Source: Dehalococcoidia bacterium
GTDB taxonomy: Bacteria; Chloroflexota; Dehalococcoidia; Bin125
Length of the DNA: 64,000 nt
Assembly (NCBI GenBank): GCA_965215555.1
Contig: OZ244071.1
Coordinates: 267,778-331,777 of the forward strand
Direction: 5' to 3'
In this document: positions 1,689-46,964 of the stretch, in pieces
How positions within the stretch are numbered: position 1 is the first letter of the stretch
Layout of the letters: every line of letters begins with the position of its first letter
The notes under the pieces: generated by a model
What the model was told of the DNA's origin: nothing
Database searches by the model: none
Seen by the model: the letters and a program-made list of their open reading frames with translations, nothing else
Made by a program: the position numbers and the translations under genes

Positions 1689-1870
1689 GGGCCTGTTCAC
1701 ATGGGGCGGCCAGTCCAGGAGTTCCCGTCATACCCGCGCTCCGCCGCGGGTATCTCGCTGCATTCAGCGCAACTGTCTGTGTAACACTCGGCGAGATTGC
1801 CCCCGCATCAAGTGCGGGGCAGGCTGCGACAAGCGCGGCAATGACGGAATTCTGACGAAACAGATGGCTA
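1689..1870 (+). repeat. Structured intergenic repeat, copy A (family also at 27641..27875, 37027..37160, 45638..45842)
   Basis: About 180 bp with nested inverted repeats: CGTCATACCCGCGC...GCGGGTATCTCGCTG, CTCGGCGAGATTGCC, CCCCGCATCAAGTGCGGGG, GCGGCAATGACGGAAT. Lies between convergent genes (formyltransferase + and FmdB -). Confidence 0.8.
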
Positions 1871-1884
1871 ATGTGAACACGCCC

Positions 1885-3780: not shown

Positions 3781-4067
3781 ATGATGCGTCATGAAACAGA
3801 CCCACTTCTGCTGCGCGGGCCGGTTCCTCACCTCTGACCGTTGGTCGAAACAGCGCGTCGGAAGTGTTTCGAAAGCCAGTTCAATAGCCTCCATTGCCTC
3901 ATGCGCTCGTCGACAGCTTCTTCCGAGTCAAAGAGTCCAGTTGGACCGAATCCCGTCTCTGAGATGACATACACCGGACCTGGAGGGGGGAGAGCATTCT
4001 CGGGGTCTTTGTGCTGGCCGGGAGATGGTCTAGCCTGGGTCATCACGATCCTCCTAGTGTCAGGGTA

Positions 4068-4847
4068 TCAGTCACCAGACTCCCTGCCGTTCGCGATTTC
4101 CTTGCGTAGCGCTGTGACCTCATTCTGTAGGACTTTGAGTTCTTCGAGGATTTGTTCTTGCTCTTTGTCCTGGTCCTGCTCGACGAACCAGGCGGCGATT
4201 GTGGCAGTGAGCATTCCGAGGAGGGCGAAGCCGAGCAGGGTGACGATTGCTCCCACGATTCGGCCGAGCACGGTTGTTGCCTCCTTGACGCCGTCTCCGG
4301 TTGCCATGGTGTGTAGCGTCCACCAGAGCGCTGAGTCCCAACTCTGTACCTGGCTCCCGGCGCCGCTTTCGACGGCCCAGATGGCGGCAGTTGCACCAAA
4401 CATGATGGTCAAGGCAAGCACCACAGTGCCGCGCACTCCTCTTCGGTCGAGAAGCGTCCAAAGCCTGGCAACAAACACAACCGCCCTGAGCAGCCGTAGT
4501 GGACGCAAGAAAGGCACTACGACAATCAGAACATCGATCCAGTTGCGTCGCAGAAACTGTCTGCGGTTCTCCGCCAACCAGAGTCGGGCGACGAGATCGA
4601 CAGCGAACACAGCCCAGATGCCCCACTCGCCGTAGGTGAACGCCCTATCAACGTCATCCGATAGATCGCTGACCAGCGGGAGCAAGAGCAGCGGCAGCAT
4701 GATCCCCGCAAGAATCAACAGGGGAAGATTTGTGCGGGCTTCCCAACGCTCCAGGTGGTCATCGGAGCGTCCCGCTCGCAGAACACTCCACCACTCCAAC
4801 AGGGGACTCACTGTCGAGATTCCCGGTCCACCAACAGAATCAGCCAT
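4068..4847 (-). CDS. Voltage-gated ion channel (6TM, Kv-like) with non-canonical pore 'TMATGDG'
   Basis: S4 helix with spaced arginines 'RPLRLLRAVVFVARLW'. Pore region 'WWTLHTMATGDGV'. C-terminal coiled coil 'LEELKVLQNEVTALRKEIA'. Confidence 0.7.
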   Translation of the reverse strand: MADSVGGPGISTVSPLLEWWSVLRAGRSDDHLERWEARTNLPLLILAGIMLPLLLLPLVSDLSDDVDRAFTYGEWGIWAVFAVDLVARLWLAENRRQFLRRNWIDVLIVVVPFLRPLRLLRAVVFVARLWTLLDRRGVRGTVVLALTIMFGATAAIWAVESGAGSQVQSWDSALWWTLHTMATGDGVKEATTVLGRIVGAIVTLLGFALLGMLTATIAAWFVEQDQDKEQEQILEELKVLQNEVTALRKEIANGRESGD

Positions 4848-5749: not shown

Positions 5750-7684
5750 TTAGCGAATGCTGGCTTTCATGTCTTCCCAGGCAGAGCGGGCATCTTCGAC
5801 GGAGCCTTCGTCTTCGATTGTGGAGATGTCTCCAGGATCCGTGTCGAGCGTGACGGCTTTGAGGACTCGCCGCATGATTTTGCCTGAGCGAGTCTTGGGC
5901 AGGGCGTCGACGAAGTTAAGCTCGCCGATGACGGCCACCGGGCCGAGTTCCCCACGGATGGTCTGGAGAATCTCGGTCTTGAGATCGTCGCCAGCCTCGT
6001 TACCGGCCTTGAGCACGACGAAGGCAGAGATGACTTCGCCTCGCAGTTCGTCCGGACGTCCGGTGACGCCAGCTTCTGCTGCGCCCGGATGCCTGAGAAT
6101 GGCTGACTCGACCTCGATGGTGCCGATTCGGTGAGCGGCGATTTTGATGATCTCGTCGGCTCGTCCTGAGAACCAGACGTAGCCGTCTTCGTCGACTGCG
6201 GTGGCGTCACCGGTGAAGTAGACCTGGCGACCGGGAACCTTTCCCCAGTAGTCGGTCTGATAGCGCTCGGGCTCGCCCCAGAGACGAGCAGTCAGGCCCG
6301 GGAAGGGTCTGGTGATGGCGAAGATGCCTTTCTCGTCGGCGGGGAGTTCTTCGCCGTCGGTATCGAGGACGGCGCCCTCGATGCCTGGCAACTGAATTCC
6401 GGCTGAGCCTGGTTTGATTGGCAGCATCTGGATGCCGTAGGGATTGCCGATGATCGGGCCACCCGTCTCGGTCTGCCACATGTGGTCGAGGACGGGAATC
6501 TCGTCGCCGAAGATTTCCTGCTGGAACCATTCCCAGGCGGGCGGATTGAGTACTTCGCCGGCGGAGAAGACGCGGGTCAGTGATGACATGTCGACAGCTT
6601 CGGCCGGCTCAGTCCCCGAGCGCATCAGCAGACGGATTGCCGTTGGTGAAGTGAACATGCCGGTGACGCCGTGGTCCTCGATGATCTTGTAGAAGGTGCC
6701 GACATCCGGGTGATCGAGCGCGCCTTCAAATGCGATCGTGGTTGCTCCGGCGAGCAGTGGTCCGTAGACGATGTAGGAGTGTCCCACGACCCAGCCGATG
6801 TCGGAGGTAGCCCACCAGACGTCCTCGGGCTGGAGGTCGAAGACCCAGTCAGCCATGCTGGCGATCCAGACCGGGTAGCCGCCGTGGGTGTGGACGCAGA
6901 GTTTGGGCCGCGCGGTCGTTCCTGATGTGGCGAGGATGTATGCCGGTTCGTTGGCTTCCATGGCGACCCACGACCCGTCGCCTCCACGGCCAGCTTCGAG
7001 GAAGTCCTCCCAGCTCATCTCCTTGTCGCCACCGATGTTGGGGCTGTCGGCCAGGCGACGCTCGACGACGACTGTCTCGATGATCTCGCCTGCGCCTTCG
7101 TTCTCGAGCGCGCCTCTGACGAAGTGGTTGAGCGGGACGTTGCGGCCGCGCCGGTATGTGGAGTCGGTGGCGAAAATGGCTTTGGCCTCGGCCAGCTTGA
7201 TCCGCTCGGCGATGGCGCCTGCCCCGAATCCGGCGAAGATGACCAGGTGGACTGCGCCGATGCGGGCACAGGCGAGCATCAGCGCGATCGCTTCGTAGTT
7301 GGTTGGCATGTAGATGGCGACGCGGTCGCCACGCTCGATTCCGATGGCGCGAAGTGAAGCGGCCATTCGCTCGACCTGCTTGAGGAGCTGCGCATATGTG
7401 AAGACACGTTGTTCGCCGTTTTCGTCGAGCGCGATCAGTGCGGCGCGACCACCATTTCCATTTGCGACCTGGGCGTCGAGGCAGGCGTAGGCCAGGTTGG
7501 TCTCGCCGCCGATGAACCAGCGGAAGGCAGGGATATCTTCCGGGGTCCACTCGAAGACTTCATCCCATTCTCGGAACCAGGGCAACCGAGCGGCTGCTTC
7601 CGACCAGAACGCATCGGGCTCGTCGAGCGCTCGACGTTGGATTTCGCGGACAATCGGGCCGACCAGATCGATGTCGGAAGGCAT
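5750..7684 (-). CDS. AMP-forming acetyl/propionyl-CoA synthetase (Acs/PrpE family)
   Basis: 644 aa. AMP-binding motif 'YILATSGTTARPK'. C-terminal 'LPKTRSGKIMRRVL' is typical of Acs/PrpE. Confidence 0.85.
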   Translation of the reverse strand: MPSDIDLVGPIVREIQRRALDEPDAFWSEAAARLPWFREWDEVFEWTPEDIPAFRWFIGGETNLAYACLDAQVANGNGGRAALIALDENGEQRVFTYAQLLKQVERMAASLRAIGIERGDRVAIYMPTNYEAIALMLACARIGAVHLVIFAGFGAGAIAERIKLAEAKAIFATDSTYRRGRNVPLNHFVRGALENEGAGEIIETVVVERRLADSPNIGGDKEMSWEDFLEAGRGGDGSWVAMEANEPAYILATSGTTARPKLCVHTHGGYPVWIASMADWVFDLQPEDVWWATSDIGWVVGHSYIVYGPLLAGATTIAFEGALDHPDVGTFYKIIEDHGVTGMFTSPTAIRLLMRSGTEPAEAVDMSSLTRVFSAGEVLNPPAWEWFQQEIFGDEIPVLDHMWQTETGGPIIGNPYGIQMLPIKPGSAGIQLPGIEGAVLDTDGEELPADEKGIFAITRPFPGLTARLWGEPERYQTDYWGKVPGRQVYFTGDATAVDEDGYVWFSGRADEIIKIAAHRIGTIEVESAILRHPGAAEAGVTGRPDELRGEVISAFVVLKAGNEAGDDLKTEILQTIRGELGPVAVIGELNFVDALPKTRSGKIMRRVLKAVTLDTDPGDISTIEDEGSVEDARSAWEDMKASIR

Positions 7685-7771
7685 GAAGAGACTCCAACTC
7701 AGGGTTGCGGTCTTGCTGGCGGAGTGAGCGGGTACCGTATGCGGAGGGTATCAGCGGAGGGGTCAGAACCA

Positions 7772-25714: not shown

Positions 25715-26614
25715 ATGAACGCAGTAGCACCTGGATTCGATCCAGCAGGTTGGACCCACGATTACGCGACGACGAACGGAGTCCGGCTGCACTACGTGAC
25801 CCAGGGCGAAGGCCCGCTGATCCTGTTGCTGCACGGGTTTCCTGAGCACTGGTACTCATGGCGCCACCAGATTGGCCCGTTGACCGAGGCGGGTTTCCGA
25901 GTCGTCGCGCCTGACTTGCGGGGCTACAACCTGTCCGACAAGCCTCGCGGTGGATACGACATCAAGAATCTGACCAAAGACGTACGCGGATTGATTCGAG
26001 CCTTCGGCGAGCAATCGGCAACCATCGTCGGGCACGATTGGGGTGGAGTGATCTCGCTGCAGTTCCCGATCGATTACCCCAAAGCTTGCGAGCGGTTGAT
26101 CGTGATGAACGCCCCACTGGTCCGCTCGTGGTACTGGGGCAAGCGGAACTACCCGAACAACACCTATGCACTGCTGATGCAGGTGCCGGGACTTTCCGAG
26201 CGCAGGGCTTGGTCAGACATTGACCAGACAACCAGCCGGGTCTTCACCGCGGTCGGCGATAACGAAGATGCATTCACTCAGCAAGATCTCGACATCTTCG
26301 CCGAGGCGCTGAAGCAGCCGAACGCGCTGTCATCGGCAATGAAGTACTACCGCTCGATCTACTGGCCGAACTGGTTCCTGACCTGGCCTGACCGCAATGC
26401 GCGGATCACCTGTCCGACCCAGTTCATCTGGGGCCGAGAGGATCGCGCGGTGCGGTTGCCGTTCATGGAAGAAGCCGCTGAACGAGTGGACGATTTGCGG
26501 ACCGTGTTGATTGATGACGCCGGCCATTGGGTCCAACAGGAGAAACCGCAGGAAGTGACCGCTGCGATGCTGGACTTCCTGGCGCCGAACGCTGTTGGAG
26601 CGCCACAGCAATGA
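25715..26614 (+). CDS. Alpha/beta hydrolase (epoxide hydrolase-like), copy 1
   Basis: 'LLLHGFPEHWYSWRHQ' and 'GHDWGG' nucleophile elbow. Confidence 0.75.
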   Translation: MNAVAPGFDPAGWTHDYATTNGVRLHYVTQGEGPLILLLHGFPEHWYSWRHQIGPLTEAGFRVVAPDLRGYNLSDKPRGGYDIKNLTKDVRGLIRAFGEQSATIVGHDWGGVISLQFPIDYPKACERLIVMNAPLVRSWYWGKRNYPNNTYALLMQVPGLSERRAWSDIDQTTSRVFTAVGDNEDAFTQQDLDIFAEALKQPNALSSAMKYYRSIYWPNWFLTWPDRNARITCPTQFIWGREDRAVRLPFMEEAAERVDDLRTVLIDDAGHWVQQEKPQEVTAAMLDFLAPNAVGAPQQ

Positions 26615-27630
26615 GCGACCCGTCAACTGAGTCCGAACCGGTAGGTATCTGGACTCACGGATTTACGTATGGAGCCGGTGGGGTTCGGTTGCATTACGCC
26701 GAAGCTCGTCCCGAGGGCGACCTGGATTCCGCGCCGTTGGCGATTCTGCTGCATGGTTTTCCCGAGTTCTGGTGGTCCTGGCGATTACAGATTCCGGCAC
26801 TGGCGGCGGCAGGGTATTGGGTCGTGGCCCCCGACCTTCGCGGATACAACCTCTCCGACGCTCCCTCGGACGTGCAGGACTACTCGATGGATTTGCTCAC
26901 GGAAGATGTGCAGCGTCTGATCGCTCACTTCGGTCGTGAACAGGCAGTCATCGTCGGTCACGACTGGGGCGGGGCGGTGGCCTGGCAGTTTGCCATGGAT
27001 TGTCCGGGATCTGTTGAGCAGCTCGTTGTGATGAATGCGCCGCATCCGGAGCGCATGGCGGAGGCATTTGGCGGCAAGATCAACTTCCGCCAGATCGGCC
27101 GCTCCTGGTACATGTTCGTATTTCAGATTCCCAAGCTGCCCGAGCGCTGGTTGGCCACCAATGACTACGAGCGCGTGGGCTGGGTGTTGCGCGACAGCGC
27201 CGCGCATCCCGAGGCGTTTCCGCCTGAGGTATTGCAGGAGTATCGCCGTGCGGCGGCGCGAAACGGCCTGACGGGGCCGCTGCACTTCTATCGCGCGGCG
27301 GTCCGCGCCGCAGCGCGAGACTCGCGCGCTCGATTCGGTAAGCGGTTCGTTGGGCTAGCTCAGGCGCTTGACAGTGTGCTCGACAGCGTGCTGGGCTCCG
27401 CACCCGCGGAGGCCACGGTGTTCCCGGCGATCTCTGCGCCGACACTGCTGCTCTGGGGAGAACGCGACACGGCGCTGGGCAAGGAGCTGACCGAGGGCAT
27501 GGACCACCTGTTCAGCGGCCCATTCGAGATTACGTATCTGCCGGACTGCGGACATTGGGTGCAGCAGGAAGGCGCGGAAGACGTCAACCGGCTGATGTTG
27601 GAGTTCCTGGAGCGTTATCGCGAGAACTAG
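26611..27630 (+). CDS. Alpha/beta hydrolase (epoxide hydrolase-like), copy 2 (tandem paralog)
   Basis: ATG 26611 overlaps the previous stop (ATGA). 'ILLHGFPEFWWSWRLQ' and 'GHDWGG'. Confidence 0.75.
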   Translation: MSDPSTESEPVGIWTHGFTYGAGGVRLHYAEARPEGDLDSAPLAILLHGFPEFWWSWRLQIPALAAAGYWVVAPDLRGYNLSDAPSDVQDYSMDLLTEDVQRLIAHFGREQAVIVGHDWGGAVAWQFAMDCPGSVEQLVVMNAPHPERMAEAFGGKINFRQIGRSWYMFVFQIPKLPERWLATNDYERVGWVLRDSAAHPEAFPPEVLQEYRRAAARNGLTGPLHFYRAAVRAAARDSRARFGKRFVGLAQALDSVLDSVLGSAPAEATVFPAISAPTLLLWGERDTALGKELTEGMDHLFSGPFEITYLPDCGHWVQQEGAEDVNRLMLEFLERYREN

Positions 27631-27640
27631 GGCGGGTTCC

Positions 27641-27875
27641 CATCAGCCATCTGCTTAGTCAGAGTTCGGCTATTGCCTCCCTTGATGCGGGTGCAATCTC
27701 GCCGAGTTGTGCATAGACAGTGGTGCTGAATGCAGCGAGATACCCGCGGCGAGCGCGGGAATGACGATATTTTGTTGGCGCGGGTATGACGGGAACCCCT
27801 GGGCGGGTGTGACGCGAACTCCTAGGCGGATATGAAGGGAACTTCTGGACTGAACGACGCCATGTGTACACGCCC
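27641..27875 (-). repeat. Structured intergenic repeat, copy B (inverted orientation, four internal ~24-bp sub-repeats)
   Basis: Reverse complement of copy A. Contains GCGGGAATGACGATATTTTGTTGGC / GCGGGTATGACGGGAACCCCTGGGC / GGGTGTGACGCGAACTCCTAGGC / GGATATGAAGGGAACTTCTGGACTG in tandem. Lies between convergent genes. Confidence 0.8.
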
Positions 27876-27906
27876 TGGAGCGGCCCAGGCTGGAACTGCG
27901 GCCCCT

Positions 27907-28968
27907 TTAGGTCAGTGGCGAGTCGGGGTCGACATCGGTGGTTGCGGCGATCCAATAGCGATGCCTGATGCCCATCGATAGTTCCTCGAGGTCGCGTGCC
28001 ACCTGACGTTCGGTCGTGGCATCGAGTCCGGCGCCACCGCAGACTCCGGTCAGCATCGAGCGTTTGAAGATGAGGCCGACTGAAGCGTCAACGAACGACA
28101 GGTCTCGCGCCTTGTGGGCGAGGAAGTACTGCATGTCCTTTGAGTCGAACGGCATCGGACCGCGGCCATCGGTGGGCCACAGACCCCAACCGAGATAGCC
28201 GCCGCGCGCGACGTGTTCGCGGACTGCACGGTGATGTTCGATCACATCGTCGACATGTCCTTCACGAGCATCGAAGTGGATCAGGTTGGGTCGGGAGTCA
28301 AGAATCCGAGTCCAGTTCGGTGAAGCGCAGCAGTGGATACCAGCGAGCGCGCCGACGCGCTGGACGGGCTCGATTGCGGCGCGCAGCACTGGAATGACTT
28401 CACGCCAGGGAAGTGGGATGGCTGGTTCTCCAACAGAAGCCAGTTCGGGTTCGTCAAAGAGAATGATTACCTGCTGGCCGAGCCGCTGAAAGACTCGCGC
28501 TTGCTCCGCCGCTGCGGCGCCGAGCCATGCCGCGAGTTGTTCAAGGGTTTGCAGATTCTCGTGCGGGGCCTTGCCAGAGGTGTCGCGAGTCCAACGGGAC
28601 AGCGTGAGCGGGCCGACGATATGTCCCTTGACGACATTCGACTTGCGTTCCTCGGACACTGTCGGCAGCCGGTCGAGGAGCTCGTACAGGCCTGCAGCGC
28701 GATCACGAGGCGGCAGGCCGGCGTTGGCCAGGTCGGACTCGGAGAGCGAGCCCGACCAGGTGATGTACTCGCCGTCCCACGACGCTCCCGGTAGGGAGAG
28801 CGCGGTCTGCGGGATCATCTGTTCCTCGGGCGTGCGGTTCGGCAATTGCGGCCAGAACGGGAGGCGCCAGTAATCTTCGAGGATTTCGGCAGTCGCTTCG
28901 CTGGCATCGGTGTGTCGAGTGGATCCGATGCCGCAGGGCAGGAGTGGGAGATGTATTGGTGCGTCCAC
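27907..28968 (-). CDS. MetE-like / UroD-like TIM-barrel protein (cobalamin-independent methionine synthase C-terminal domain-like)
   Basis: 'IILFDEPELA' and 'GIHCCASPNW' resemble MetE C-domain motifs. Weak assignment. Confidence 0.4.
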   Translation of the reverse strand: MDAPIHLPLLPCGIGSTRHTDASEATAEILEDYWRLPFWPQLPNRTPEEQMIPQTALSLPGASWDGEYITWSGSLSESDLANAGLPPRDRAAGLYELLDRLPTVSEERKSNVVKGHIVGPLTLSRWTRDTSGKAPHENLQTLEQLAAWLGAAAAEQARVFQRLGQQVIILFDEPELASVGEPAIPLPWREVIPVLRAAIEPVQRVGALAGIHCCASPNWTRILDSRPNLIHFDAREGHVDDVIEHHRAVREHVARGGYLGWGLWPTDGRGPMPFDSKDMQYFLAHKARDLSFVDASVGLIFKRSMLTGVCGGAGLDATTERQVARDLEELSMGIRHRYWIAATTDVDPDSPLT

Positions 28969-36271: not shown

Positions 36272-36968
36272 CAACATGCTGGCCAACAAGCTGGACGTGG
36301 TTGCGGTTGTTCCGGTTCGCGGCCTTCCTGCCGGCAAGCGTCGGTTGGCGGCGCTGTTGGATGTCGATGATCGCAACGCGCTGGTGCTGGCGATGCTGGA
36401 TGACGTCGTCGCGGCGCTCGTAGCGGCTGAGTCGATTGATCGGGTGGTGATTGCCTCGCGGGACTCGGAAGCTCGGGACGAAGCGGCGCGGCTGAACGTG
36501 GGTTTCCTCGATCAAACCGAACTGCGCCTGGGCTACAACCGCGCGGTCTCGTTTGCGCAGGAAGCACTGTCGGACGCTGGCGCGCTGCTGATCGTGCCGG
36601 CTGATGTGCCGCTGATTACGCCGGATGCAGTGGACCTGGCGGTGTCATCTGCGCCTGACGGCCCGGCGGTCGTCGTGGCGCCAGCACATAACGGCGGGAC
36701 GAATGGTCTGTTTCTGCGACCGCCGGATGTCATCGCGCCGCAGTTTGGTCCATCGTCTGCTCGTGCGCATGCGCAGTCGGCGGCAGCGGCAGGTGAAGCC
36801 GGGGTTCCGTTCAGGGAGGCGCGGATCGACGTGTGGGCATTCGATCTTGACACCCCGACCGATCTGCAGTGGCTCCAGGAGGTGCTGCCGGAGTTGCCTC
36901 AGGAGATTGCGCCGAACACCCGACGCTGGCTGGCGGCACATGTCGAGGGGACAGGCACTGCGACGTAG
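36261..36968 (+). CDS. cofC: 2-phospho-L-lactate guanylyltransferase (F420 biosynthesis)
   Basis: 'VAVVPVRGLPAGKRRLA' nucleotidyltransferase motif. Overlaps the cofD end. Confidence 0.7.
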   Translation: MPPSNMLANKLDVVAVVPVRGLPAGKRRLAALLDVDDRNALVLAMLDDVVAALVAAESIDRVVIASRDSEARDEAARLNVGFLDQTELRLGYNRAVSFAQEALSDAGALLIVPADVPLITPDAVDLAVSSAPDGPAVVVAPAHNGGTNGLFLRPPDVIAPQFGPSSARAHAQSAAAAGEAGVPFREARIDVWAFDLDTPTDLQWLQEVLPELPQEIAPNTRRWLAAHVEGTGTAT

Positions 36969-37026
36969 GCTGGGCGACTTCACACACACCCTGGAAGGCG
37001 AAAGGCTACAAGCAATCGATGCTCTT

Positions 37027-37160
37027 TGGCCTGTTGGATTCGGTGGAACCACTCCGTCATACCCGCGCTTGGCGTGGGTATCTCGCTGAATTACTCACGG
37101 ACGATTGTGCTGGACGCGGCGAGATTGCCGCGACGGAGCGCGGCAATGACGGAATAGAGG
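37027..37160 (+). repeat. Structured intergenic repeat, copy C
   Basis: GGCCTGTT...CCGTCATACCCGCGCTTGGCGTGGGTATCTCGCTG...CGGCGAGATTGCC...GCGGCAATGACGGAAT. Lies between convergent genes (cofC + and acyl-CoA dehydrogenase -). Confidence 0.75.
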
Positions 37161-37181
37161 ACAGGGTTTACATCAATCTCC

Positions 37182-38348
37182 CTATGCGCGGGGCAGGCCG
37201 AAGCCTCGCTGGGCAATGATGTTTCTTTGCAGTTCGTTTCCTCCGGCTCCGAAGGTTGGCATGACTGCGGCGAGGTAGCCGTTTTCGGATGAGCCGCCGA
37301 TTGGCGCTCTCGAGTCGTTGCCGTTGAGCTGTCCGTAGAGTCCCATGGCGTGCAGTGAGAAGTTCTGCAGGCGCTGCATCATCTCGGTGGAGAAGATCTT
37401 GACCTGGCTGGCCTCGTAGTTGGGCGACTCTTCGCGCTTGAGCATGTCGAGGATGCGGAAGCTCAGGTGTTGCAGGACTTCGAGCTGCACCTTGAACTCG
37501 GCCATCGTCCCCTTGATGCCGGCATCGTCGATTGGGCGGCCCATCGGTGTGTCGGACTTGGCCCATTCGATCAGGTTGTCGTACACGGCCCGCACGGATG
37601 AGACGGTGAAGATCGAAATCCGTTCGCGGTCGAGCGCGTGCGCAGCGTAGTACCAACCGCGGTTCTCTTCTCCGACGAGGACGTTCGTCGGGACGCGCAC
37701 GTCTTCGAAGTACACCTCGTTGGTTCGGTAGCCGGCCATCGTCCAGAGCGGCTTGACCGTGATGCCGGGCGACTTCATGTCAACCAACATCATCGAGACG
37801 CCACGGTGCTTGGGCGCGTCCGGGTCAGTCCGAGTGGCGAGCCAGACATATTCGCTGCGATGGGCTCCAGAGGTGAAGCGCTTGATTCCGTTGAGGATGT
37901 AGTCATCGCCATCTTTGATGGCGCGAAGCTGCAGAGAGGCGAGGTCGGAACCGGCGTCGGGCTCTGTGTAGCCGAGGGCGAATTCGACTTCTCCGCGCGC
38001 GATCGGCGGGAGGAAGCGTTCCTGCTGCTCGTCGGTGCCGAATCGCATCAGCGTCGGGCCGACCTGCTGCGTGGCGACCGTCGCCTGCGGCGCTCCGGCG
38101 TAGTTCATCGCCTCCCAGAAGAGGTACTGCTCTTCTAGAGAGCGTTCTTGTCCGCCATACTCGGCCGGCCAGGACATCGTCAGCCATCCACGCTCAGCCA
38201 GCAGCCTTCGGAAGCCGCGTTCTTCGTCCATCGTATCCGTGGTCGGATCGCCGATGGTCGCCCTGAGTTCGGCGGTCCATGACTGGTCGAGAAACTCGTT
38301 GACTTCGGTTTCGAAGGCGAGTGCCTTGTCGCTGAATCGATATTCCAT
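37182..38348 (-). CDS. Acyl-CoA dehydrogenase family protein
   Basis: 388 aa with the ACAD fold, for example 'GYTEPDAGSDLASL'. Confidence 0.8.
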   Translation of the reverse strand: MEYRFSDKALAFETEVNEFLDQSWTAELRATIGDPTTDTMDEERGFRRLLAERGWLTMSWPAEYGGQERSLEEQYLFWEAMNYAGAPQATVATQQVGPTLMRFGTDEQQERFLPPIARGEVEFALGYTEPDAGSDLASLQLRAIKDGDDYILNGIKRFTSGAHRSEYVWLATRTDPDAPKHRGVSMMLVDMKSPGITVKPLWTMAGYRTNEVYFEDVRVPTNVLVGEENRGWYYAAHALDRERISIFTVSSVRAVYDNLIEWAKSDTPMGRPIDDAGIKGTMAEFKVQLEVLQHLSFRILDMLKREESPNYEASQVKIFSTEMMQRLQNFSLHAMGLYGQLNGNDSRAPIGGSSENGYLAAVMPTFGAGGNELQRNIIAQRGFGLPRA

Positions 38349-40436: not shown

Positions 40437-41524
40437 AACGGATCGATTCGTGCGGACACTGGAGTGAAGTCGTCCATGTGCTCAGGGTCCATCCTGCGGA
40501 CGATCCCCGGGTAGATGCCGGTGCGCTTTCCGGCGGTCGATCCGGCGACGGCGATTTGGATGTGCGAGGGATGGGCAACCTTCGACATTGGACGATTGAG
40601 GTCTGCTTCGGTGATTCCCTCTCGCTTGAGAGTGGGCTGGGTGATGCCTCCACCGACTCGGTCGGTGGCGAGACGATCGCGGATCGGTCGTGCCGTGAGT
40701 TCCATGATCGCTTCTCGGACATTGGCTTTGGACCAACCGTCCTGACGAAAGACACCAGCATGCTCGGGACTGATCACCAGCATGGACGGGCCGATCTGTC
40801 CGTTGGGGCTGAAGATGCCGTCAAATCCCATCGCCAGGGAGCCGACGAGCGCTCTTGCTGTGCGGCTGTACTCGTCGACGCAGACTCGAGGTCCGCCGAT
40901 CACGGGCAGGAGCGTGACGACGCTGTCGTCGGGCTGGTAGCCGTACTCGACGTGCAGCGGTTGCCAGGGCGAGGCATCCTCGTGCTCTGCAAAGGTCAGC
41001 GTGAACTTGTGCGCGCCGCCCTGGACGGTCTGGTCGATTTCGCCCTCTCGAGCGCCGCCGATGTTGCGCAAGACCAGCCGCAAGGCTCGGCCGATGGTCA
41101 TGTTGGCGCGATTGCCCTGTCCCAGTGCGTTGAGCCCCCAGTTCATCCTGATCTGCTCGCGAACCGGGCCATTGACAATGACCATGGGCGAAATGCCGTC
41201 TGTACTGGCGACCGTCCCGTGTAAGGGAAACTGGCCACCGGCGGCAGCAGCAACGGCGGCGATGATGGCCGGAAAGAATGTTGGCGATGCTCCGGCCATG
41301 ACTGCGTTGATCGCGATTTTCTCGACCGTGGCCGGCGCGTAGTTTGGCGGGATCTTGCCAATCACTTGTTCAGGAGAGCGATTTGTGTTGGCCAACATGC
41401 GCTCGACCCGTTCGCGAGTTGGAGGGACAACTGGTAGGCCGTCGGTCACACGCTGGTCGAAGAGGAACTCGTAGATGTCGTCGTGGTCGGCGACGTCAAT
41501 GGTGCGCGAGCCAAGGTTGATCAT
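40433..41524 (-). CDS. Uncharacterised conserved protein, family X copy 1 (selenoprotein-locus paralog)
   Basis: Start ATG 41524 (MINLGSRTIDVADHDDIYEFLFDQRVTDGLPVVPPTRERV...). Shared motifs 'INAVMAG', 'LHGT', 'GQGNRAN..GRALRL..RNIGG', 'QGG.HK'. Confidence 0.55.
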   Translation of the reverse strand: MINLGSRTIDVADHDDIYEFLFDQRVTDGLPVVPPTRERVERMLANTNRSPEQVIGKIPPNYAPATVEKIAINAVMAGASPTFFPAIIAAVAAAAGGQFPLHGTVASTDGISPMVIVNGPVREQIRMNWGLNALGQGNRANMTIGRALRLVLRNIGGAREGEIDQTVQGGAHKFTLTFAEHEDASPWQPLHVEYGYQPDDSVVTLLPVIGGPRVCVDEYSRTARALVGSLAMGFDGIFSPNGQIGPSMLVISPEHAGVFRQDGWSKANVREAIMELTARPIRDRLATDRVGGGITQPTLKREGITEADLNRPMSKVAHPSHIQIAVAGSTAGKRTGIYPGIVRRMDPEHMDDFTPVSARIDPL

Positions 41525-42630
41525 GAACGAACAAGGGCGGACGGGGGCACGAACGTGGGCGCAGGCGCTAGGGGATTGCCGTCGCCGAAGATGCCCTGGT
41601 AGATGCTGGTCCACTTGCCGGCGTGGCTGCCGGCAACGGTGATCTGAATGAACGAGGGATCGGCCACTTTCGACATGAGCATATCGAGTTGATCTTCGGT
41701 CAGACCGTGCTGTTCGGGCAGGTATTCATTGATGCCGCCACCCATGCTTGGTGTGGCCAGACGCTCGCGGAGCGGGAGCGCGGTGAACTCCATGATCGCT
41801 TCGCGGATGTTGTCTTTTGACCAGCCGTCGGCGCGATAGACATCAGCGTGTTCGGGACTGATCACGAACATCGTGGGTGAGACCTGACCTCGCGGCTTGA
41901 CCACCTGCTGGAAGGCCATGGCGATCGATCCGGTCAGCGCTCTCCCGTTGCGACTGGTCTGATCAATACAGACTCGGGGACCGCCGGTGATTGGGATCAG
42001 CGAGACGACACTGTCGTCGGGTTCGTAGCCATGCTCCACGTGGAATGGTTCCCAGGGCGAGTAGTCTTCGTCCTCCGCATAACTGAGCGTCCACTTGTGG
42101 CCGCCACCCTGGATGGCCTGTTCGATCTCGCCGGGCACGGCTCCGCCGATGTTGCGCAGCATCAGGCGGAGTGCGCGTCCGAGAGTTGAGTTGGCTCGGT
42201 TGCCCTGGCCGAGGGCGTTGAGACCCCAGTTCATGCCGATCTGCTCGCGGACTGGTCCGTTGACCAACATCATCGGGGCGAGTCCGGCCGTCGTGGCGAT
42301 TGACCCGTGTAGGGGAAACTGCCCCCCGGCGGCGGCTTCGACGGAAGCCAGGACTGTCGGGAAGAACTGGGGACTGCAGCCAGCCATGACGGCGTTGATG
42401 GCTGCCTTCTCGACGCTCATCGGCGCCGTGTTGGGCGGCAGCGTCGCAACGATCTTCTGAGGATCACTCCAGTGCTCTGGAGCGCAGGCGAGCATACGGT
42501 CGACACGCTCACGAGTGGGCGGGATGACGGGCAGGCCGTCGGTGATTCCCTGGGCGAACATGAACTCGTAGACATCGTCATGCTCGGCGATTTCGATGAT
42601 CCGAGAGTAGAAGTCGGTTTCGCCGGGCAC
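41521..42630 (-). CDS. Uncharacterised conserved protein, family X copy 2
   Basis: 'DDVYEFMFAQGITDGLPVIPPTRERVDRML...' Its stop overlaps the copy-1 start (ATGA). Confidence 0.55.
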   Translation of the reverse strand: MPGETDFYSRIIEIAEHDDVYEFMFAQGITDGLPVIPPTRERVDRMLACAPEHWSDPQKIVATLPPNTAPMSVEKAAINAVMAGCSPQFFPTVLASVEAAAGGQFPLHGSIATTAGLAPMMLVNGPVREQIGMNWGLNALGQGNRANSTLGRALRLMLRNIGGAVPGEIEQAIQGGGHKWTLSYAEDEDYSPWEPFHVEHGYEPDDSVVSLIPITGGPRVCIDQTSRNGRALTGSIAMAFQQVVKPRGQVSPTMFVISPEHADVYRADGWSKDNIREAIMEFTALPLRERLATPSMGGGINEYLPEQHGLTEDQLDMLMSKVADPSFIQITVAGSHAGKWTSIYQGIFGDGNPLAPAPTFVPPSALVRS

Positions 42631-42752
42631 GGCATTGCCTTGTCGATTGGGTGCGGCCCCTCGGTCCAGGGGAACGCCCTCACCCTTACCCTCTCCCAGC
42701 GGGAGAGGGGATTGAATAGATTCGGGGGCTCTCAGCAGAGGCGGTCTGAGAG

Positions 42753-43283
42753 CTATTCGACGGGCGCCATCAAGGTGTCGAGGATTTCGTCGACGAAGCG
42801 TTCGGCGTGTTCGTGCATCTCGGCGTCGGTGCGGTCCTGCATCGGATGCGGGATGAAGACGCGACGCACTTCTTCAAGTCCGAGACGCTCAGCCTGATGG
42901 CTGGCGGCTTTGATGAACTCGGAAGTCGCAATGAAGACGCTGGGCTTGCCCTGCAGTTCGAAGAAAACGGTGTCGTGCACACTGCACGTCGTGCAGGATC
43001 CTCAATCAGCGAGCGCTTCGATGACGAAGTCGCACTCCTCCAGGATGGCATCTTTGATCGGTTGCGGGGCCGGCTTGGCGACGGTCGGCTTCATGAAGCG
43101 TCGGGTCTCGACGCCGGGCGCACGCTCGTGGAGGAGCTGCTCGAGTCGGTCGAGGAAGACGTTGCCACGCGGCTTGGAGATGTCGAGCAGGGCGATCGTC
43201 CCATGCAGCGCTTCCGGGCGCGGCGTGAGAGAGCGCTTGATCGGCACTCGTTCGTCGGTTGGATCAAGGATCTGGGTAACCAT
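42753..43283 (-). CDS. Putative selenoprotein with in-frame UGA (Sec) followed by G-S-C, a UGSC-type motif
   Basis: Two listed ORFs (43002..43283 and 42753..42980) are in the same frame, separated by a single TGA at 43002..43004. The product reads ...DFVIEALAD-U-GSCTTCSVHDTVFFELQGKP.... The run CUGCACGACGUGCAG just 3' of the UGA can fold into a stem-loop. Confidence 0.6.
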
Positions 43284-43364
43284 TGGACCTCTCCATCAAC
43301 GCGCTCGGTGCAGGGTCTGGCGCGTTGTGTGTTTGTTGACAGTCTACTCGTTGCAACTGATGAC

Positions 43365-45041
43365 TTAGGGTTTGCGGACGCTCGGTTCGAACGCGCCGAG
43401 TCTGGGTCCGCCAGCGGGACTCTTGCTGTTGCCGGTGCGTCGCGGCCTGATTTCGGTCGCGCCGTTGGGACCGATATTGGCGCTGGTTGCGGTGGAATAC
43501 ACGCCGGTTGCCCAGCCGCCAAGGATGGTGGAGAACTTCGCCGCGGACGATCCGGCGACGACGAGGATGATGTTCGACTTGTCCTGGAATTTGGCGACGG
43601 GGTGGTCGAGCGCTGCTTCGCCCCCGAATCGCTCGACGACGCTGGGCGGCAGGCCGCAACCGGCATCGTCAGAGCGGAGACGGTACTTGAGCGGGATGGA
43701 TGTCTCTTCCATGATGCACTCGCGCACGTCGTCTTTGGACCAGCCTGAGCGTCCGAAGATGCCTGCGTGGTCGGGGGAGAGGACGACGAGGGTGTCGACC
43801 ATCGGCGACTTTGGGTCTTGCATGCAGCTCATCGAAGCGGCGAGCGTGCCGGCCATGCCTCGCCCGTCTCGGGAGCGTTCGTCGGCGATGGTGGCTGGGC
43901 CACCGGACATCGCCGTCAGCGTGGCGACATCGTCGGTGGGATCGAAACCGAGCTCAACGGCGAGCGATTCCCAGGGGCTGGCGTCCTCGTTCTCGGCGAA
44001 GTTCATCGTCAGACGGTGCGGGCCGCCCTGTGTGGCTCGATCGGTACCGCCAGGGATGCTGCCACCGACATTTCGCACGCACAGTCGCAGAGCCCTGCCG
44101 ATGGCTGCGTTGGCTCGGTTGCCGGATCCCAACGCTCCGTGGAGGTAGTTCATCCCGATTCGGTCTCGAATCGGTCCGTTGAAGATGCCGACGGGCGTGG
44201 CGCCCATCGTGGTCGCGAGCACGCCGTGGACGTTGAAGCTGTCGGTGCAGGCGATCTCGATCAGCGCGATGATCGAGGGCATGTACACGGGCTTGGCTCC
44301 GGCCATGACTGCGTTGATCGCAATCTTCTCGACTGTGATCGGCGCGAGATTGGGCGGGACGACCGCGACCTCCTCCTGAGGGTCGCGCGGAGTGCCTTGC
44401 AGCATTTTCCAAACGCGCTCGCGCGTCGGCGGCACGACGGGGAAGCCGTCGGTGTAGCCCTGCTCGTACATGAAGTCGTGAATGTCGTCGCTGGACGCCA
44501 AGTCAACGAGGCGCGAGAGCAGGTCGCCGCTCTTGATCGCTTGCAGCCGTTCGTAAACGCCCGGCTCGTAGTTGCGTGCGCCGCATCCGGGTCGCTGGAC
44601 GGGGAGCGCATCCCAATCGATGTCGGTGTCGCCATCGGGTCGGCCGGCGAGCGCCATCGACTCTTTGGCGATTTCGTGCCACTCGTGCCTGTCGAAGCCG
44701 AACGTCTGCAGGGTGCAGTTCTGTTCTTCGTCGTACAGGAACAGCGTCGGCACGGTGTCGATATCCGTCTCGTAGGACAGATCGAGCGCGTCGTCGTCCA
44801 GCAACGGCATTGTCAGGTCGTGACGGTCCTTGAGGACGGGGATGTCCTCGGTCTTCTGTACGGCGACCCAGACATCGAGTCCGTCGTCAGTGGCTCGGTG
44901 GACTGCCTCGAGCAGCGGCAGGGTGAGGTTGCAGGTATCGCAGTCTTCTTTGACCAGCGCCAGCAGGACGGGGCCCTGCGGCGGGAACTGCATTTCCTGA
45001 CCGTTGGCGTTTTGGAGGGAGAATTTAGTAGGTGGATGCAT
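43365..45041 (-). CDS. Thioredoxin-like (CxxC) domain fused to family X copy 3
   Basis: N-terminal ~150 aa has a thioredoxin-like fold with 'CDTC'. The remainder aligns to copies 1 and 2 ('YTDGFPVVPPTRERV', 'INAVMAG', 'GSGNRANAAIGRALRL'). Confidence 0.6.
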   Translation of the reverse strand: MHPPTKFSLQNANGQEMQFPPQGPVLLALVKEDCDTCNLTLPLLEAVHRATDDGLDVWVAVQKTEDIPVLKDRHDLTMPLLDDDALDLSYETDIDTVPTLFLYDEEQNCTLQTFGFDRHEWHEIAKESMALAGRPDGDTDIDWDALPVQRPGCGARNYEPGVYERLQAIKSGDLLSRLVDLASSDDIHDFMYEQGYTDGFPVVPPTRERVWKMLQGTPRDPQEEVAVVPPNLAPITVEKIAINAVMAGAKPVYMPSIIALIEIACTDSFNVHGVLATTMGATPVGIFNGPIRDRIGMNYLHGALGSGNRANAAIGRALRLCVRNVGGSIPGGTDRATQGGPHRLTMNFAENEDASPWESLAVELGFDPTDDVATLTAMSGGPATIADERSRDGRGMAGTLAASMSCMQDPKSPMVDTLVVLSPDHAGIFGRSGWSKDDVRECIMEETSIPLKYRLRSDDAGCGLPPSVVERFGGEAALDHPVAKFQDKSNIILVVAGSSAAKFSTILGGWATGVYSTATSANIGPNGATEIRPRRTGNSKSPAGGPRLGAFEPSVRKP

Positions 45042-45143: not shown

Positions 45144-45473
45144 ATGTCCCAGCTTCGACGCTTGCTGCTGGCGCTTGTGGTGATTGGTGGACTGAGTGCG
45201 TTGACACTCGGGGTCGCAGCAGCAGGCGAGTACGCCATCGAAGAGCCGGCGCAAGTAGTTGAGGCGGGCGGCGACGAAGAGGACAGCGTTCACGTTTCGG
45301 ATGAGTCGCTGGCGACTTCGCTGTTCATCCCATTCTGCTTTGTCGGTGCGACGTTGGCGGTGTTCGTCTGGGCAATCCGCGCCCGGGCGAGACGCGAGGA
45401 CGACGAAATCCCGATGCCATGGTGGCGGACACGTCAGTGGTACACACGCGGCACCGAAGAGGACGAGGCGTAA
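45144..45473 (+). CDS. Hypothetical small secreted/membrane protein
   Basis: ATG 45144 with upstream GAGGGG. Signal-like N-terminus 'MSQLRRLLLALVVIGGLSALTLGVAAAG', acidic middle, TM helix, and basic tail. Confidence 0.4.
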   Translation: MSQLRRLLLALVVIGGLSALTLGVAAAGEYAIEEPAQVVEAGGDEEDSVHVSDESLATSLFIPFCFVGATLAVFVWAIRARARREDDEIPMPWWRTRQWYTRGTEEDEA

Positions 45474-45637
45474 CTGGCCTGCTTCTGCCGTTGCGAGGCA
45501 GATGCCGATAGCGGGCAGAGTTCCCCTTAGACACTGGGAATTCGATAGTCACCTCCCATCCTCTGTCACTCCGTGGCATCTCCCCCGCAGGGGGGAGGTG
45601 AGGCACGAACGTGCGGGCTCTAGGGCGTGTTCGCGCT

Positions 45638-45842
45638 AGCCATCTGCTTAACCAGAATTCCGTCGTTGCCGCGCTTGTCGCAGCCTGCCCCTCACTTGAT
45701 GGGGGGGCAATCTCGTCGAGTGTTGCACGGACAGTTGCGGCGAATACAGCGAGATACCCGCGGCAAGCGCGGGTATGACAATCTCTTGTTGGCCCGGGTA
45801 GGACGGGAACTCCTGGACGAACCGCTACGTGTGAACAGGTCC
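45638..45842 (-). repeat. Structured intergenic repeat, copy D (inverted, two internal sub-repeats)
   Basis: Near-identical to the reverse complement of copy A (AGCCATCTGCTTAACCAGAATTCCGTCGTTGCCGCGCTTGTCGCAGCCTGCCCC...). Lies between convergent genes. Confidence 0.8.
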
Positions 45843-45857
45843 TAGCTGCGACCTGCC

Positions 45858-46964
45858 CTAGAACAGCAACTGGCCTAAGCGACGGCGATAATCCGCGACG
45901 ACTGGCTGGTTTTCGCCGAGCATTGCGAAGATTCCCAGGAGGGTCTTGCGCGCGGCTTCGTCGCCGGCGGATTTGTCGATCTTCACCGACTCGAGCAACT
46001 CGTCGAGCGCTTCCATCCACTGACCCTCGATCGCCAGCAGGCAACCGTGCCTGAAGTGGGCGAGCGGATCGCCGGGATTGCTGGAGACGGTTTGCCTGAT
46101 CTCGTCCGGCTCGAACCCTTCGAGGGCCGCCATCAGCTCCATCGATGTGAGGACACTCTTACTCAATGGGTGATTGGGCCAGCGACGAGCGAGCTCGGCT
46201 GCTCGGTCAGTCTCTCCGACCCTCGAGAGGATGGCAGCGAGTCCGACTCCTGCCGGCTCGTGGTTGGGATCTTCTTCCAACGCCGACTCGAAGTGCAATC
46301 GGGCAATCGGAATCTGATTTTCCTGCATCATCCGATAGCCCTCGGCCGCTTTCATGTCTGCTTCGGAGGGAATCAGAGAATCGAAGAAGGTTCGGACCTG
46401 ATCCTCGGGCAATGCGCCGACGAACTTGTTGACCAATTGACCTCCGACGAACGCGAATACTGCCGGAATGCCCTCGACCTGTAGCGCCTGGGCGACCTGC
46501 GGGTTTTCGTCGGTGTTGACCTTGACCAGTTGCACCTGGCCGTCGCGCTCGTATGCGAGCTTCTCCAGGATCGGACCCAGGACTCGGCAGGGCCCACACC
46601 AGGGGGCCCAGCAATCGACGATCACGGGCAGCTCATGGGAGCGCTGCAGCACATCCTGCTGGAATGTCGCATCGGTGGAATCGATGACGGCCGCGACGTG
46701 GCCATGCAACCCCTGTGGCTCGGTGCCGTCAGGCGCTTGCCCTGGCTCAGATCTCTGTGAGGGTGGTGGCGTCTCACGAATCGGGACGGGCGGTGGCGGC
46801 GGTGCGGCTGGCTGCTGCTGAACGCTACGTATTGGTTGTCCCGAGGCCGAGTAGATGACCGGCCCGGAAGGCTGAGGCGGCTGCTGTTGAGGAGGAGGCT
46901 GTGGCGCGCCGCGTTGCACTCGGTCACGGGGGAACGGGATCGGGTCGGGCGGTCGCTGCGTCAT
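45858..46964 (-). CDS. Thioredoxin domain + TPR-like co-chaperone (YbbN/CnoX-like) with Pro/Gln-rich N-terminus
   Basis: 'WAPWCGPCR' thioredoxin motif followed by TPR-like helical repeats. Confidence 0.75.
   Translation of the reverse strand: MTQRPPDPIPFPRDRVQRGAPQPPPQQQPPQPSGPVIYSASGQPIRSVQQQPAAPPPPPVPIRETPPPSQRSEPGQAPDGTEPQGLHGHVAAVIDSTDATFQQDVLQRSHELPVIVDCWAPWCGPCRVLGPILEKLAYERDGQVQLVKVNTDENPQVAQALQVEGIPAVFAFVGGQLVNKFVGALPEDQVRTFFDSLIPSEADMKAAEGYRMMQENQIPIARLHFESALEEDPNHEPAGVGLAAILSRVGETDRAAELARRWPNHPLSKSVLTSMELMAALEGFEPDEIRQTVSSNPGDPLAHFRHGCLLAIEGQWMEALDELLESVKIDKSAGDEAARKTLLGIFAMLGENQPVVADYRRRLGQLLF

Follow-up and report, generated by a model that had tools for sequence, protein, structure and literature searches.

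Which kind of element accounts for four structured, non-coding repeats within 64 kb of a single Dehalococcoidia genome? The stretch analysed here (the window, 64,000 nucleotides at full length) comes from a Dehalococcoidia bacterium of the phylum Chloroflexota (contig OZ244071.1 of assembly GCA_965215555.1, positions 267,778 to 331,777 of the forward strand), and its four repeat copies are termed c1, c2, c3 and c4. A sequence-only reading had proposed either an element resembling a miniature inverted-repeat transposable element (MITE) or a repetitive extragenic palindrome (REP) and targeting terminators, or a family of structured terminator or small-RNA modules. The family is a new lineage of known repeat types and not a new RNA gene. 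We consider it probable that three of the copies go back to a MITE which inserts at TA/CTAG and carries a doublet of hairpins of the NTS/SRM class, and that these hairpins act as single-stranded DNA sites for the nuclease Ssn. Within this composite c1, c2 and c4 are non-autonomous MITE copies, presumably served by a transposase from trans, and the inverted SRM-class doublet is the MITE cargo as well as the whole of c3.

The hairpin doublet and its correspondence to NTS/SRM motifs

The existence of four related non-coding copies, at the places and in the orientations first proposed, was borne out by two lines of evidence. The 15-mer GCGGGTATCTCGCTG gave three exact matches and one with a single mismatch in the window, all confined to the four copies; with up to three mismatches allowed there were 17 matches against 3.1 expected, a number that 0 of 100 shuffles reached, and CTCGGCGAGATTGCC showed the same pattern. 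An independent repeat search found the pairs c1/c4 (143 nt, 89%), c1/c2 (76 nt, 88%) and c2/c4 (130 nt, 83%) to be the strongest non-coding repeats of the window.

Common to all four copies is a core of about 100 nt, in which one oriented hairpin module is present in two copies in inverted orientation. The module consists of CGTCAT, a GC stem of 7 bp, a loop of 5-6 nt and ATCTCG. The window contains 7 intact modules, none of which was found outside the four copies in the remainder of the 64 kb, and this number corresponds to a density of roughly 100 modules per Mb. Relatives were collected by scanning one genome per species with GGGTATCTCGCTG-N25-35-GCGAGATTGC, which returned at least 100 blocks of 8 kb, and 100 of these are referred to as the related loci. 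The consensus of 87 distinct copies from related genomes reads CCGTCAT-ACCCGCG-loop-CGCGGGT-ATCTCGC on the left, followed by about 30 variable nt, and GCGAGAT-TGCCGCG-loop-CGCGGCA-ATGACGG on the right. All intact modules follow the pattern CGTCAT-NNCCGCG-loop-CGCGGNN-ATCTCG, in which NN is complementary in 169 of 180 and the ATCTCG flank is kept in 169 of 180. The two bases beside CGTCAT covary with their partners (AC/GT, n = 80; TG/CA, n = 77; TC/GA, n = 12). Solitary modules retain the CGTCAT and ATCTCG flanks without a pairing partner, a pattern that favours recognition of the hairpin by a protein over an RNA helix.

The nested inverted repeats and their closure by CGTCAT/ATGACG pairing, as first described, were confirmed by the alignment and by the folds. 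In the folding model the single-stranded DNA of the doublet can adopt a long hairpin or a four-way junction that has four arms of 7 bp and leaves no base unpaired at the junction. The minimum-energy DNA fold of c3 was the four-way junction (-28.5 kcal/mol, z = -4.0) and c1 favoured a long-range variant fold (-36.2 kcal/mol, z = -4.3); the folds of c4 (z = -2.3) and of the damaged c2 (z = -1.7) were less distinctive. The c3 site is also occupied in the relative L016, with adjoining DNA of 7.5 kb that is 91% identical. Between these two orthologous sites the right module is identical in 44 of 44 positions, whereas the spacer is about 63% identical. An invariant module next to a diverged spacer fits constraint on a protein site, or gene conversion, and does not fit RNA structure. 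In L016 a stretch of about 112 bp at this site (7330-7700, the ortholog of 36900-37260) is also duplicated in tandem; it comprises most of the core and the final bases of the acyl-CoA dehydrogenase gene, and the duplication has its junction at the microhomology CGCGGG.

In Neisseria the NTS, CGTCATTCCCGCGMAVGCGGGAATCYRG, and in N. wadsworthii the NTSvar, CGTCATACTCGGGNNNNNCCCGAGTATC, were described as hairpins with flanks that give them an orientation and with hundreds of copies (Chenal et al. 2025, PMC11893778). The same study reported SsnA, a GIY-YIG nuclease of 94 aa, which binds and cuts NTS and NTSvar solely as single-stranded DNA and whose gene is typically flanked by the motif (PMC11893778). 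At every specified outer position the window module, CGTCATAC-CCGCG-N5/6-CGCGG-GTATC, agrees with NTSvar, and the core corresponds by its sequence to a hairpin doublet of the NTS/SRM class. Shared features are the oriented CGTCAT, the GC-rich hairpin, an ATC directly after the palindrome, the high copy number, the mostly intergenic position and the occurrence as singlets and inverted doublets. The published SRM search string, HGTCWYN(0-2)YYVSBRHN(0-5)WNVSBRGN(0-2)RNCYNB, is a hand-made search aid and not a definition of the class (PMC11893778); it gave 56 strict matches in 0.80 Mb of related loci, 25 of them copies of CGTCATACCCGCGCTTGTCGCGGGTATCTCG. In these loci 4 sequences matched the Neisseria NTS over its first 25 nt.

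The present family differs from the published one in its host, a member of the Dehalococcoidia (Chloroflexota) where the published cases are mainly Pseudomonadati, in its 3' flank, which is ATCTCG and not ATCYRG or ATCCAN, in its inner stem CCGCG, and in that many copies travel inside MITEs. Neither the host lineage nor the arrangement, a composite of a TA/CTAG-inserting MITE with an NTS/SRM doublet, is described in PMC11893778. The NTS/SRM hairpin class is thereby extended into the Dehalococcoidia, and the copies show that such motifs have a second route of spread, as the cargo of a TA-inserting MITE. The sequence-only reading had recognised no known ncRNA family in the repeat and had named a match to a known REP family as an outcome that would speak against it; such a match was in effect found, in a published motif class. 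The core was present in at least 16 assemblies, all of them metagenome-assembled genomes (MAGs) of Dehalococcoidia/Chloroflexota among the matches listed, and 94-99% orthologs of window proteins were labelled Chloroflexi/Chloroflexota. Three of the 16 assemblies (bin125, SB0665_bin_35 and IRC3_bin_11) carry names which we take to be those of sponge-derived bins. Names of this type fit the published enrichment of SRM-rich genomes in symbionts (PMC11893778).

Elsewhere, including in Chloroflexota, sequence searches link modules of this kind to ssn. A scan of metagenomes for the C-terminal codons of Ssn located 45-75 nt upstream of CGTCATNNCCGCG found at least 120 loci, and a match to the Ssn hidden Markov model (HMM) was encoded in 109 of the 120 loci listed. 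At two loci (L200 and L174) doublets of the form CGTCAT-stem-ATCTC...GAGAT-stem-ATGACG, the same architecture as in the window, were located beside ssn, and in a MAG of the Caldilineae (Chloroflexota) ssn was embedded in arrays of such doublets. A GIY-YIG consensus, used as the query of a protein search, retrieved a very large family of about 95 aa, two members of which (L101 and L102) were flanked by CGTCAT hairpins and inverted doublets. Two Caldilineae MAGs contained an identical Ssn-family GIY-YIG gene of 97 aa (L229, 4800-5700; L230, 4860-5487), in both cases flanked by doublet arrays, with a NUDIX gene upstream in one and a SIR2 gene in the other. The presence of an identical ssn with its arrays in two neighbourhoods suggests that the unit is mobile.

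The MITE shell, its target site and its position at gene ends

In c1, c2 and c4 the core is enclosed by an inverted pair of the 14-bp terminal inverted repeat (TIR) GGGCSTGTTCACAT, which is absent as a pair from c3. The window and the related loci together contained 21 complete TIR pairs, and in about 19 of these 21 copies the flanks read cTA/GGGC...GCCC/TAg. CTAG junctions, read as CTA/G...C/TAG, were found on the left in 17 and on the right in 16 of 24 elements. These elements, termed type A, are non-coding and 169-246 bp long.

Insertion can be read directly from empty sites. In the 94% (aa) hydrolase orthologs L224, L225 and L226 the position of c2 is empty and reads GAGAAC-TA-GAGCGGCC, whereas in the window and in L228, a 99% ortholog, it is filled and reads GAGAAC-TA-(246 bp)-TG-GAGCGGCC. 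The 81% ortholog L227 also has no c2; the empty sites of L224-L227 share AAC-TA-GAG, and the next gene follows the hydrolase at 28 nt in L224-L226 and at 12 nt in L227. Since c2 is absent from orthologous loci that have a single TA, it is an insertion with duplication of the TA. A second site with presence and absence was found between L019 (filled) and L028 (empty, GGAC-TA-GCC). The type-A MITE is thus mobile with a defined target site, and the part of the sequence-only reading that suggested a MITE/REP-like element, together with the target-site duplication it advised looking for, is upheld by the TIRs and the TA duplication.

According to a passage in PMC2170065, which cites Tenzen and Ohtsubo (1991), elements of the IS630 family have TA as their insertion site, which they duplicate, and a preference for CTAG. 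TA duplication combined with a CTAG preference is a hallmark of cut-and-paste transposition of the IS630/Tc1-mariner type, and the transposase was presumably supplied in trans. The type-A elements resemble MITEs derived from IS630/Tc1-mariner in being non-coding and 150-250 bp long, in their TIRs, TA duplication, largely palindromic body and intergenic location, and in their presence/absence polymorphism between relatives. They differ in that the interior is an SRM doublet and not remnants of the ends of an insertion sequence (IS), in that the window and the 100 related loci yielded no autonomous partner, and in their strong CTAG preference, by which a stop codon is rebuilt on insertion. Bacterial examples of IS630/Tc1-mariner-derived MITEs are the Correia elements of Neisseria and Nezha of cyanobacteria. 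To our knowledge the TIR GGGCSTGTTCACAT cannot be assigned to a described IS.

The target site also accounts for the location of the copies. The first base of the TIR is G and the target is CTAG, so an insertion into a TAG stop codon rebuilds that stop; such insertions are harmless and accumulate at the 3' ends of genes. In 8 of 24 elements a predicted gene had the flanking TAG as its stop codon, and several further elements were located at most 15 nt from a stop. A CTAG target that contains TAG, together with a TIR starting with G, gives a simple mechanical reason for the build-up of MITEs exactly at gene ends, and explains this position without the terminator targeting that had been suggested.

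The claim that the copies always lie in 3'-3' spaces held for c1, c2 and c3 and failed for c4. The genes flanking the first three are convergent, with Pfam support for 5 of the 6 (none was obtained for the minus-strand gene 27907-28968 beside c2). The lower neighbour of c4 is not a plus-strand open reading frame (ORF) but the minus-strand gene 43365-45041, in which 114 of 138 substitutions relative to its ortholog in L016 fall at third codon positions; c4 is therefore located between co-directional genes. The cores of the related loci were found in 32 convergent, 41 tandem and 11 divergent spacers, against 139, 398 and 114 among all spacers. Convergent spacers (32 of 84 copies) are enriched and not exclusive, as expected from selection against disruption of promoters. 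Only 8 of 108 cores were inside called ORFs, mostly at the ORF ends. The ORFs 27659-27955, 36869-37219 and 45325-46044, previously taken as artefacts of the repeat, had no Pfam match and were, with low scores, not chosen by a codon-usage gene call, which fits that view. The elements create spurious ORFs and probably hamper the assembly and binning of MAGs.

The four copies were originally delimited without their outer TIRs; the places were right, and the limits are now as follows.

1689-1884, plus strand: c1, complete type-A MITE of 196 bp
1689-1702 and 1871-1884: TIRs of c1
1687-1688 (cTA, left) and 1886-1887 (tTAg, right): flanks of c1
1725-1847, plus strand: core of c1, an inverted doublet of hairpin modules
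1726-1757: left module of c1, CGTCAT-ACCCGCG-ctccgc-CGCGGGT-ATCTCG
1792-1846: right module of c1, read on the minus strand
1802-1826: extra mini-hairpin of c1, about 25 nt, 5' of the right-hand hairpin
27630-27875, minus strand: c2, type-A MITE of 246 bp
27862-27875 and 27630-27643: TIRs of c2
27736-27766: the only intact module of c2
27778-27791, 27801-27814 and 27824-27837: three extra 5' half-modules of c2, in tandem
37054-37152, plus strand: c3, bare core of 99 nt without a recognisable TIR pair
37055-37085 (left) and 37120-37151 (right, minus strand): modules of c3
45623-45842, minus strand: c4, type-A MITE of 220 bp
45829-45842 and 45623-45636: TIRs of c4
45843-45844 and 45621-45622: flanking TA of c4
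45660-45781: core of c4
45792-45805: one extra half-module of c4

The TAA stop codon (1885-1887) of a minus-strand zinc-ribbon gene abuts the right TIR of c1. At c2 the hydrolase gene 26527-27630 ends in a TAG stop made up of the target TA (27628-27629) and the first G of the TIR; the other copy of the TA is now TG (27876-27877) through decay, and the right-hand module is lost or degenerate. The element c4 begins 15 nt past the TAG stop of a thioredoxin-TPR gene.

The copies also vary internally. The left arm can hold tandem half-modules, GTTCCCGTCATACCCGC, of 23-25 nt and without the 3' arm of the hairpin; c2 has three of them and c4 has one, c1 lacks them, and their number varies also in L019, L071, L081, L094 and L100. 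The mini-hairpin CCCGCATCAAGTGCGGGGCAGGCTG (about 25 nt) is optional and located 5' of the right hairpin in c1 and c4 (about 45682-45706). In other copies its reverse complement is located 3' inside the left hairpin, and L097 has both, so that the placement is symmetric; one or the other form was found in L005, L028, L050, L059 and L097.

A second MITE family, termed type B (TIR GGAGACCTTTGCAAA, 163 bp, duplication of 4-5 bp), has the same core in its middle, and the core occurs bare as well. The spacer is of the CATTCAGCGCC type in 23 of 33 copies with type-A flanks, and of the ATTCGAGCAC type with xCGGAG loops in 15 of 17 type-B copies. In spacer and loop subtype c3 goes with the bare and type-B copies, by which the possibility that c3 is a decayed type-A copy was rejected. 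Most simply, every MITE lineage would have captured a doublet of its own and would amplify it as cargo, and the bare doublets and the singlets would be maintained by another route, presumably linked to Ssn. Type B was found in L009 (7040-7260), L033, L048, L053 and L041 and is absent from the window; it is inserted in the loop of CCCCC-N4-GGGGG hairpins, with the duplications GCAA, TCGC, TCTGC and GCGA. Type-A copies in L024 (minus strand, about 3905-4146 counted on the reverse complement), L085 and L022 have yet another element inserted precisely in the loop of their left SRM hairpin; it is about 190 bp long, has GGAGAC...GTCTCC ends and no SRM core, and has duplicated the loop (GCTCCGCC, 7-8 bp). 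Loops of SRM hairpins are thus landing sites for another MITE.

Probable Ssn sites and the competing explanations

Going by the analogous cases of Neisseria and Wolbachia, the small GIY-YIG nuclease Ssn most likely binds and cleaves the modules here as single-stranded DNA, and they would act on recombination or DNA uptake and not on RNA. We infer that this organism possesses a functioning Ssn as well as an active transposase of the IS630 type, and predict that these genomes encode an Ssn-type nuclease specific for CGTCAT-hairpin-ATCTCG.

Several results weigh against this reading. The SRM string had no strict match in the window and, with W in the loop relaxed to N, 4 matches (the left modules), compared with a mean of 1.75 in the shuffled window; the right-hand TG/CA modules of the window do not fit the string at all. 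The 3' flank ATCTCG differs from that of the metagenomic modules linked to ssn, which is mostly ATCCAN. Across the 0.92 Mb made up of the window and the 100 related loci, no homolog of Ssn, a single-domain GIY-YIG protein (cd10448), was detected with an HMM, where a cognate SsnA is known for Neisseria. No transposase was among the recurrent ORFs clustered from the related loci, and no autonomous element with type-A TIRs was found in the window or these loci. The trans-acting proteins are therefore, in this lineage, inferred. Furthermore, TA duplication occurs also in some groups of the IS5 family, and the superfamily assignment accordingly rests on the target site alone. Other searches gave similar results: a regular expression and an HMM detected no GIY-YIG gene in the window and related loci, and the genes with modules on both sides were all ordinary housekeeping genes. 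No ssn close to the window organism was among the 120 metagenomic ssn loci listed (the best had 55% aa identity), and two protein searches for Ssn in these Dehalococcoidia reached only a Caldilineae MAG. Two kinds of transposase candidate were rejected. Between the TIRs of the single pair with wide spacing (L022) lie genes of MFS transporters, and the clusters of recurrent ORFs near copies were only metabolic paralogs and repeat-derived pseudo-ORFs; pseudo-ORFs of type PPLSLRDISPRKGGRG recur in the related loci.

A possible though unlikely alternative is that the hairpins are orphans or have been repurposed in a lineage without Ssn, and persist as MITE cargo and by vertical descent, or through a host function such as a site for a nucleoid protein or gyrase or the stabilisation of mRNA 3' ends. 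The failure to find ssn in the 0.92 Mb would be expected, 19% of SRM-rich genomes in the published survey have no Ssn homolog (PMC11893778), and the co-segregation of core subtype with MITE type would be expected if the MITE machinery alone were amplifying the cores. The many bare doublets and singlets outside MITEs argue that something besides this machinery maintains or spreads them, and the right module of c3, unchanged in L016 beside its diverged spacer, also speaks against mere persistence.

More remote is a scheme in which the SRM doublet is itself a self-propagating single-stranded DNA element, copied by a divergent Ssn or by an unrelated enzyme in a phylum for which no Ssn/SRM biology is described, and colonises other mobile elements (here two MITE families). 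The doublet would in that scheme also be a preferred landing pad for loop-targeting MITEs, within a multi-layer repeat ecosystem specific to these Dehalococcoidia. We find this improbable.

It is quite doubtful that the doublets are REPINs, i.e. REP doublets, spread or maintained by a RAYT (an IS200/IS605-like Y1 enzyme) with the MITE shell being incidental. There is a resemblance to REP, REPIN and BIME sequences: single hairpins and inverted doublets whose spacer varies, arrays, an extragenic location, high copy number and the insertion of other mobile elements in hairpin loops. Insertion into hairpin loops has been reported for REPs too, which are defined by a GTAG/GTGG tetranucleotide at the foot of the hairpin. 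This tetranucleotide is not conserved here, where the 5' flank is instead a conserved CGTCAT (CCGTCAT). A phmmer search of the 0.92 Mb with E. coli RayT had a best E value of 0.9, a weak negative, and there were no matches to an HUH-Y motif. The same class of motif has, moreover, an experimentally demonstrated partner of another fold, the GIY-YIG nuclease Ssn (PMC11893778), beside whose gene the modules are found in 109 of the 120 metagenomic loci mentioned above.

Least of all do we credit the proposed structured RNA under selection at the RNA level (a multi-stem terminator, a 3' structure stabilising mRNA or a small RNA): the single-strand folds of c1 and c3 are strong and the copies stand just past stop codons, but in 69 aligned cores the stems P1, P2, P4 and proximal P3 are near-invariant, pairing in distal P3 fails in as many as 51 of the 69, and the covariation score (0.065 against 0.059 shuffled, with stems too invariant to be informative) gives no covariation of the RNA type, while the copies occur in both orientations, contain no T-tract terminator according to a terminator scan, and include in c2 a presence/absence insertion with target-site duplication. 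In agreement with the absence of a recognised RNA family in the sequence-only reading, Rfam had no match at the gathering threshold in the whole window; a scan over c1 at E values of up to 10 gave only sub-threshold noise, the best match reaching 18 bits where the threshold is 39.

Some minor observations concern the surroundings of the copies. The only sigma-70-like match near c1 (1849-1877, minus strand, TTCACA-17-CAGAAT, 9/12) is located in the right TIR and arm and points towards the core; the number of such matches near c1 is not different from that in shuffles. This weak match was the only one that a promoter scan placed inside the copies. Between c4 and the next gene (45480-45620) there is a second repeat family, CTCCCCCCTGCGGGGGAGATGCCACGGAGTGACAGAGG, with an exact match at 45560-45585 on the minus strand; it is single-copy in the window and has similar sequences in related loci, e.g. 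L095. The region 40500-44400 contains paralogous coding segments (repeat families D2, D3, D5 and D7) in two adjacent copies 1088 nt apart, with a third copy of D3 and D7 about 1.9 kb further. Finally, L008 (OZ247431.1, 5973-6700) displays seven tandem units of about 109 bp with the variant module CGTCATTCCTGCGCAGGCAGGAATCACGAACC, an array similar to those of BIME/NIME sequences.

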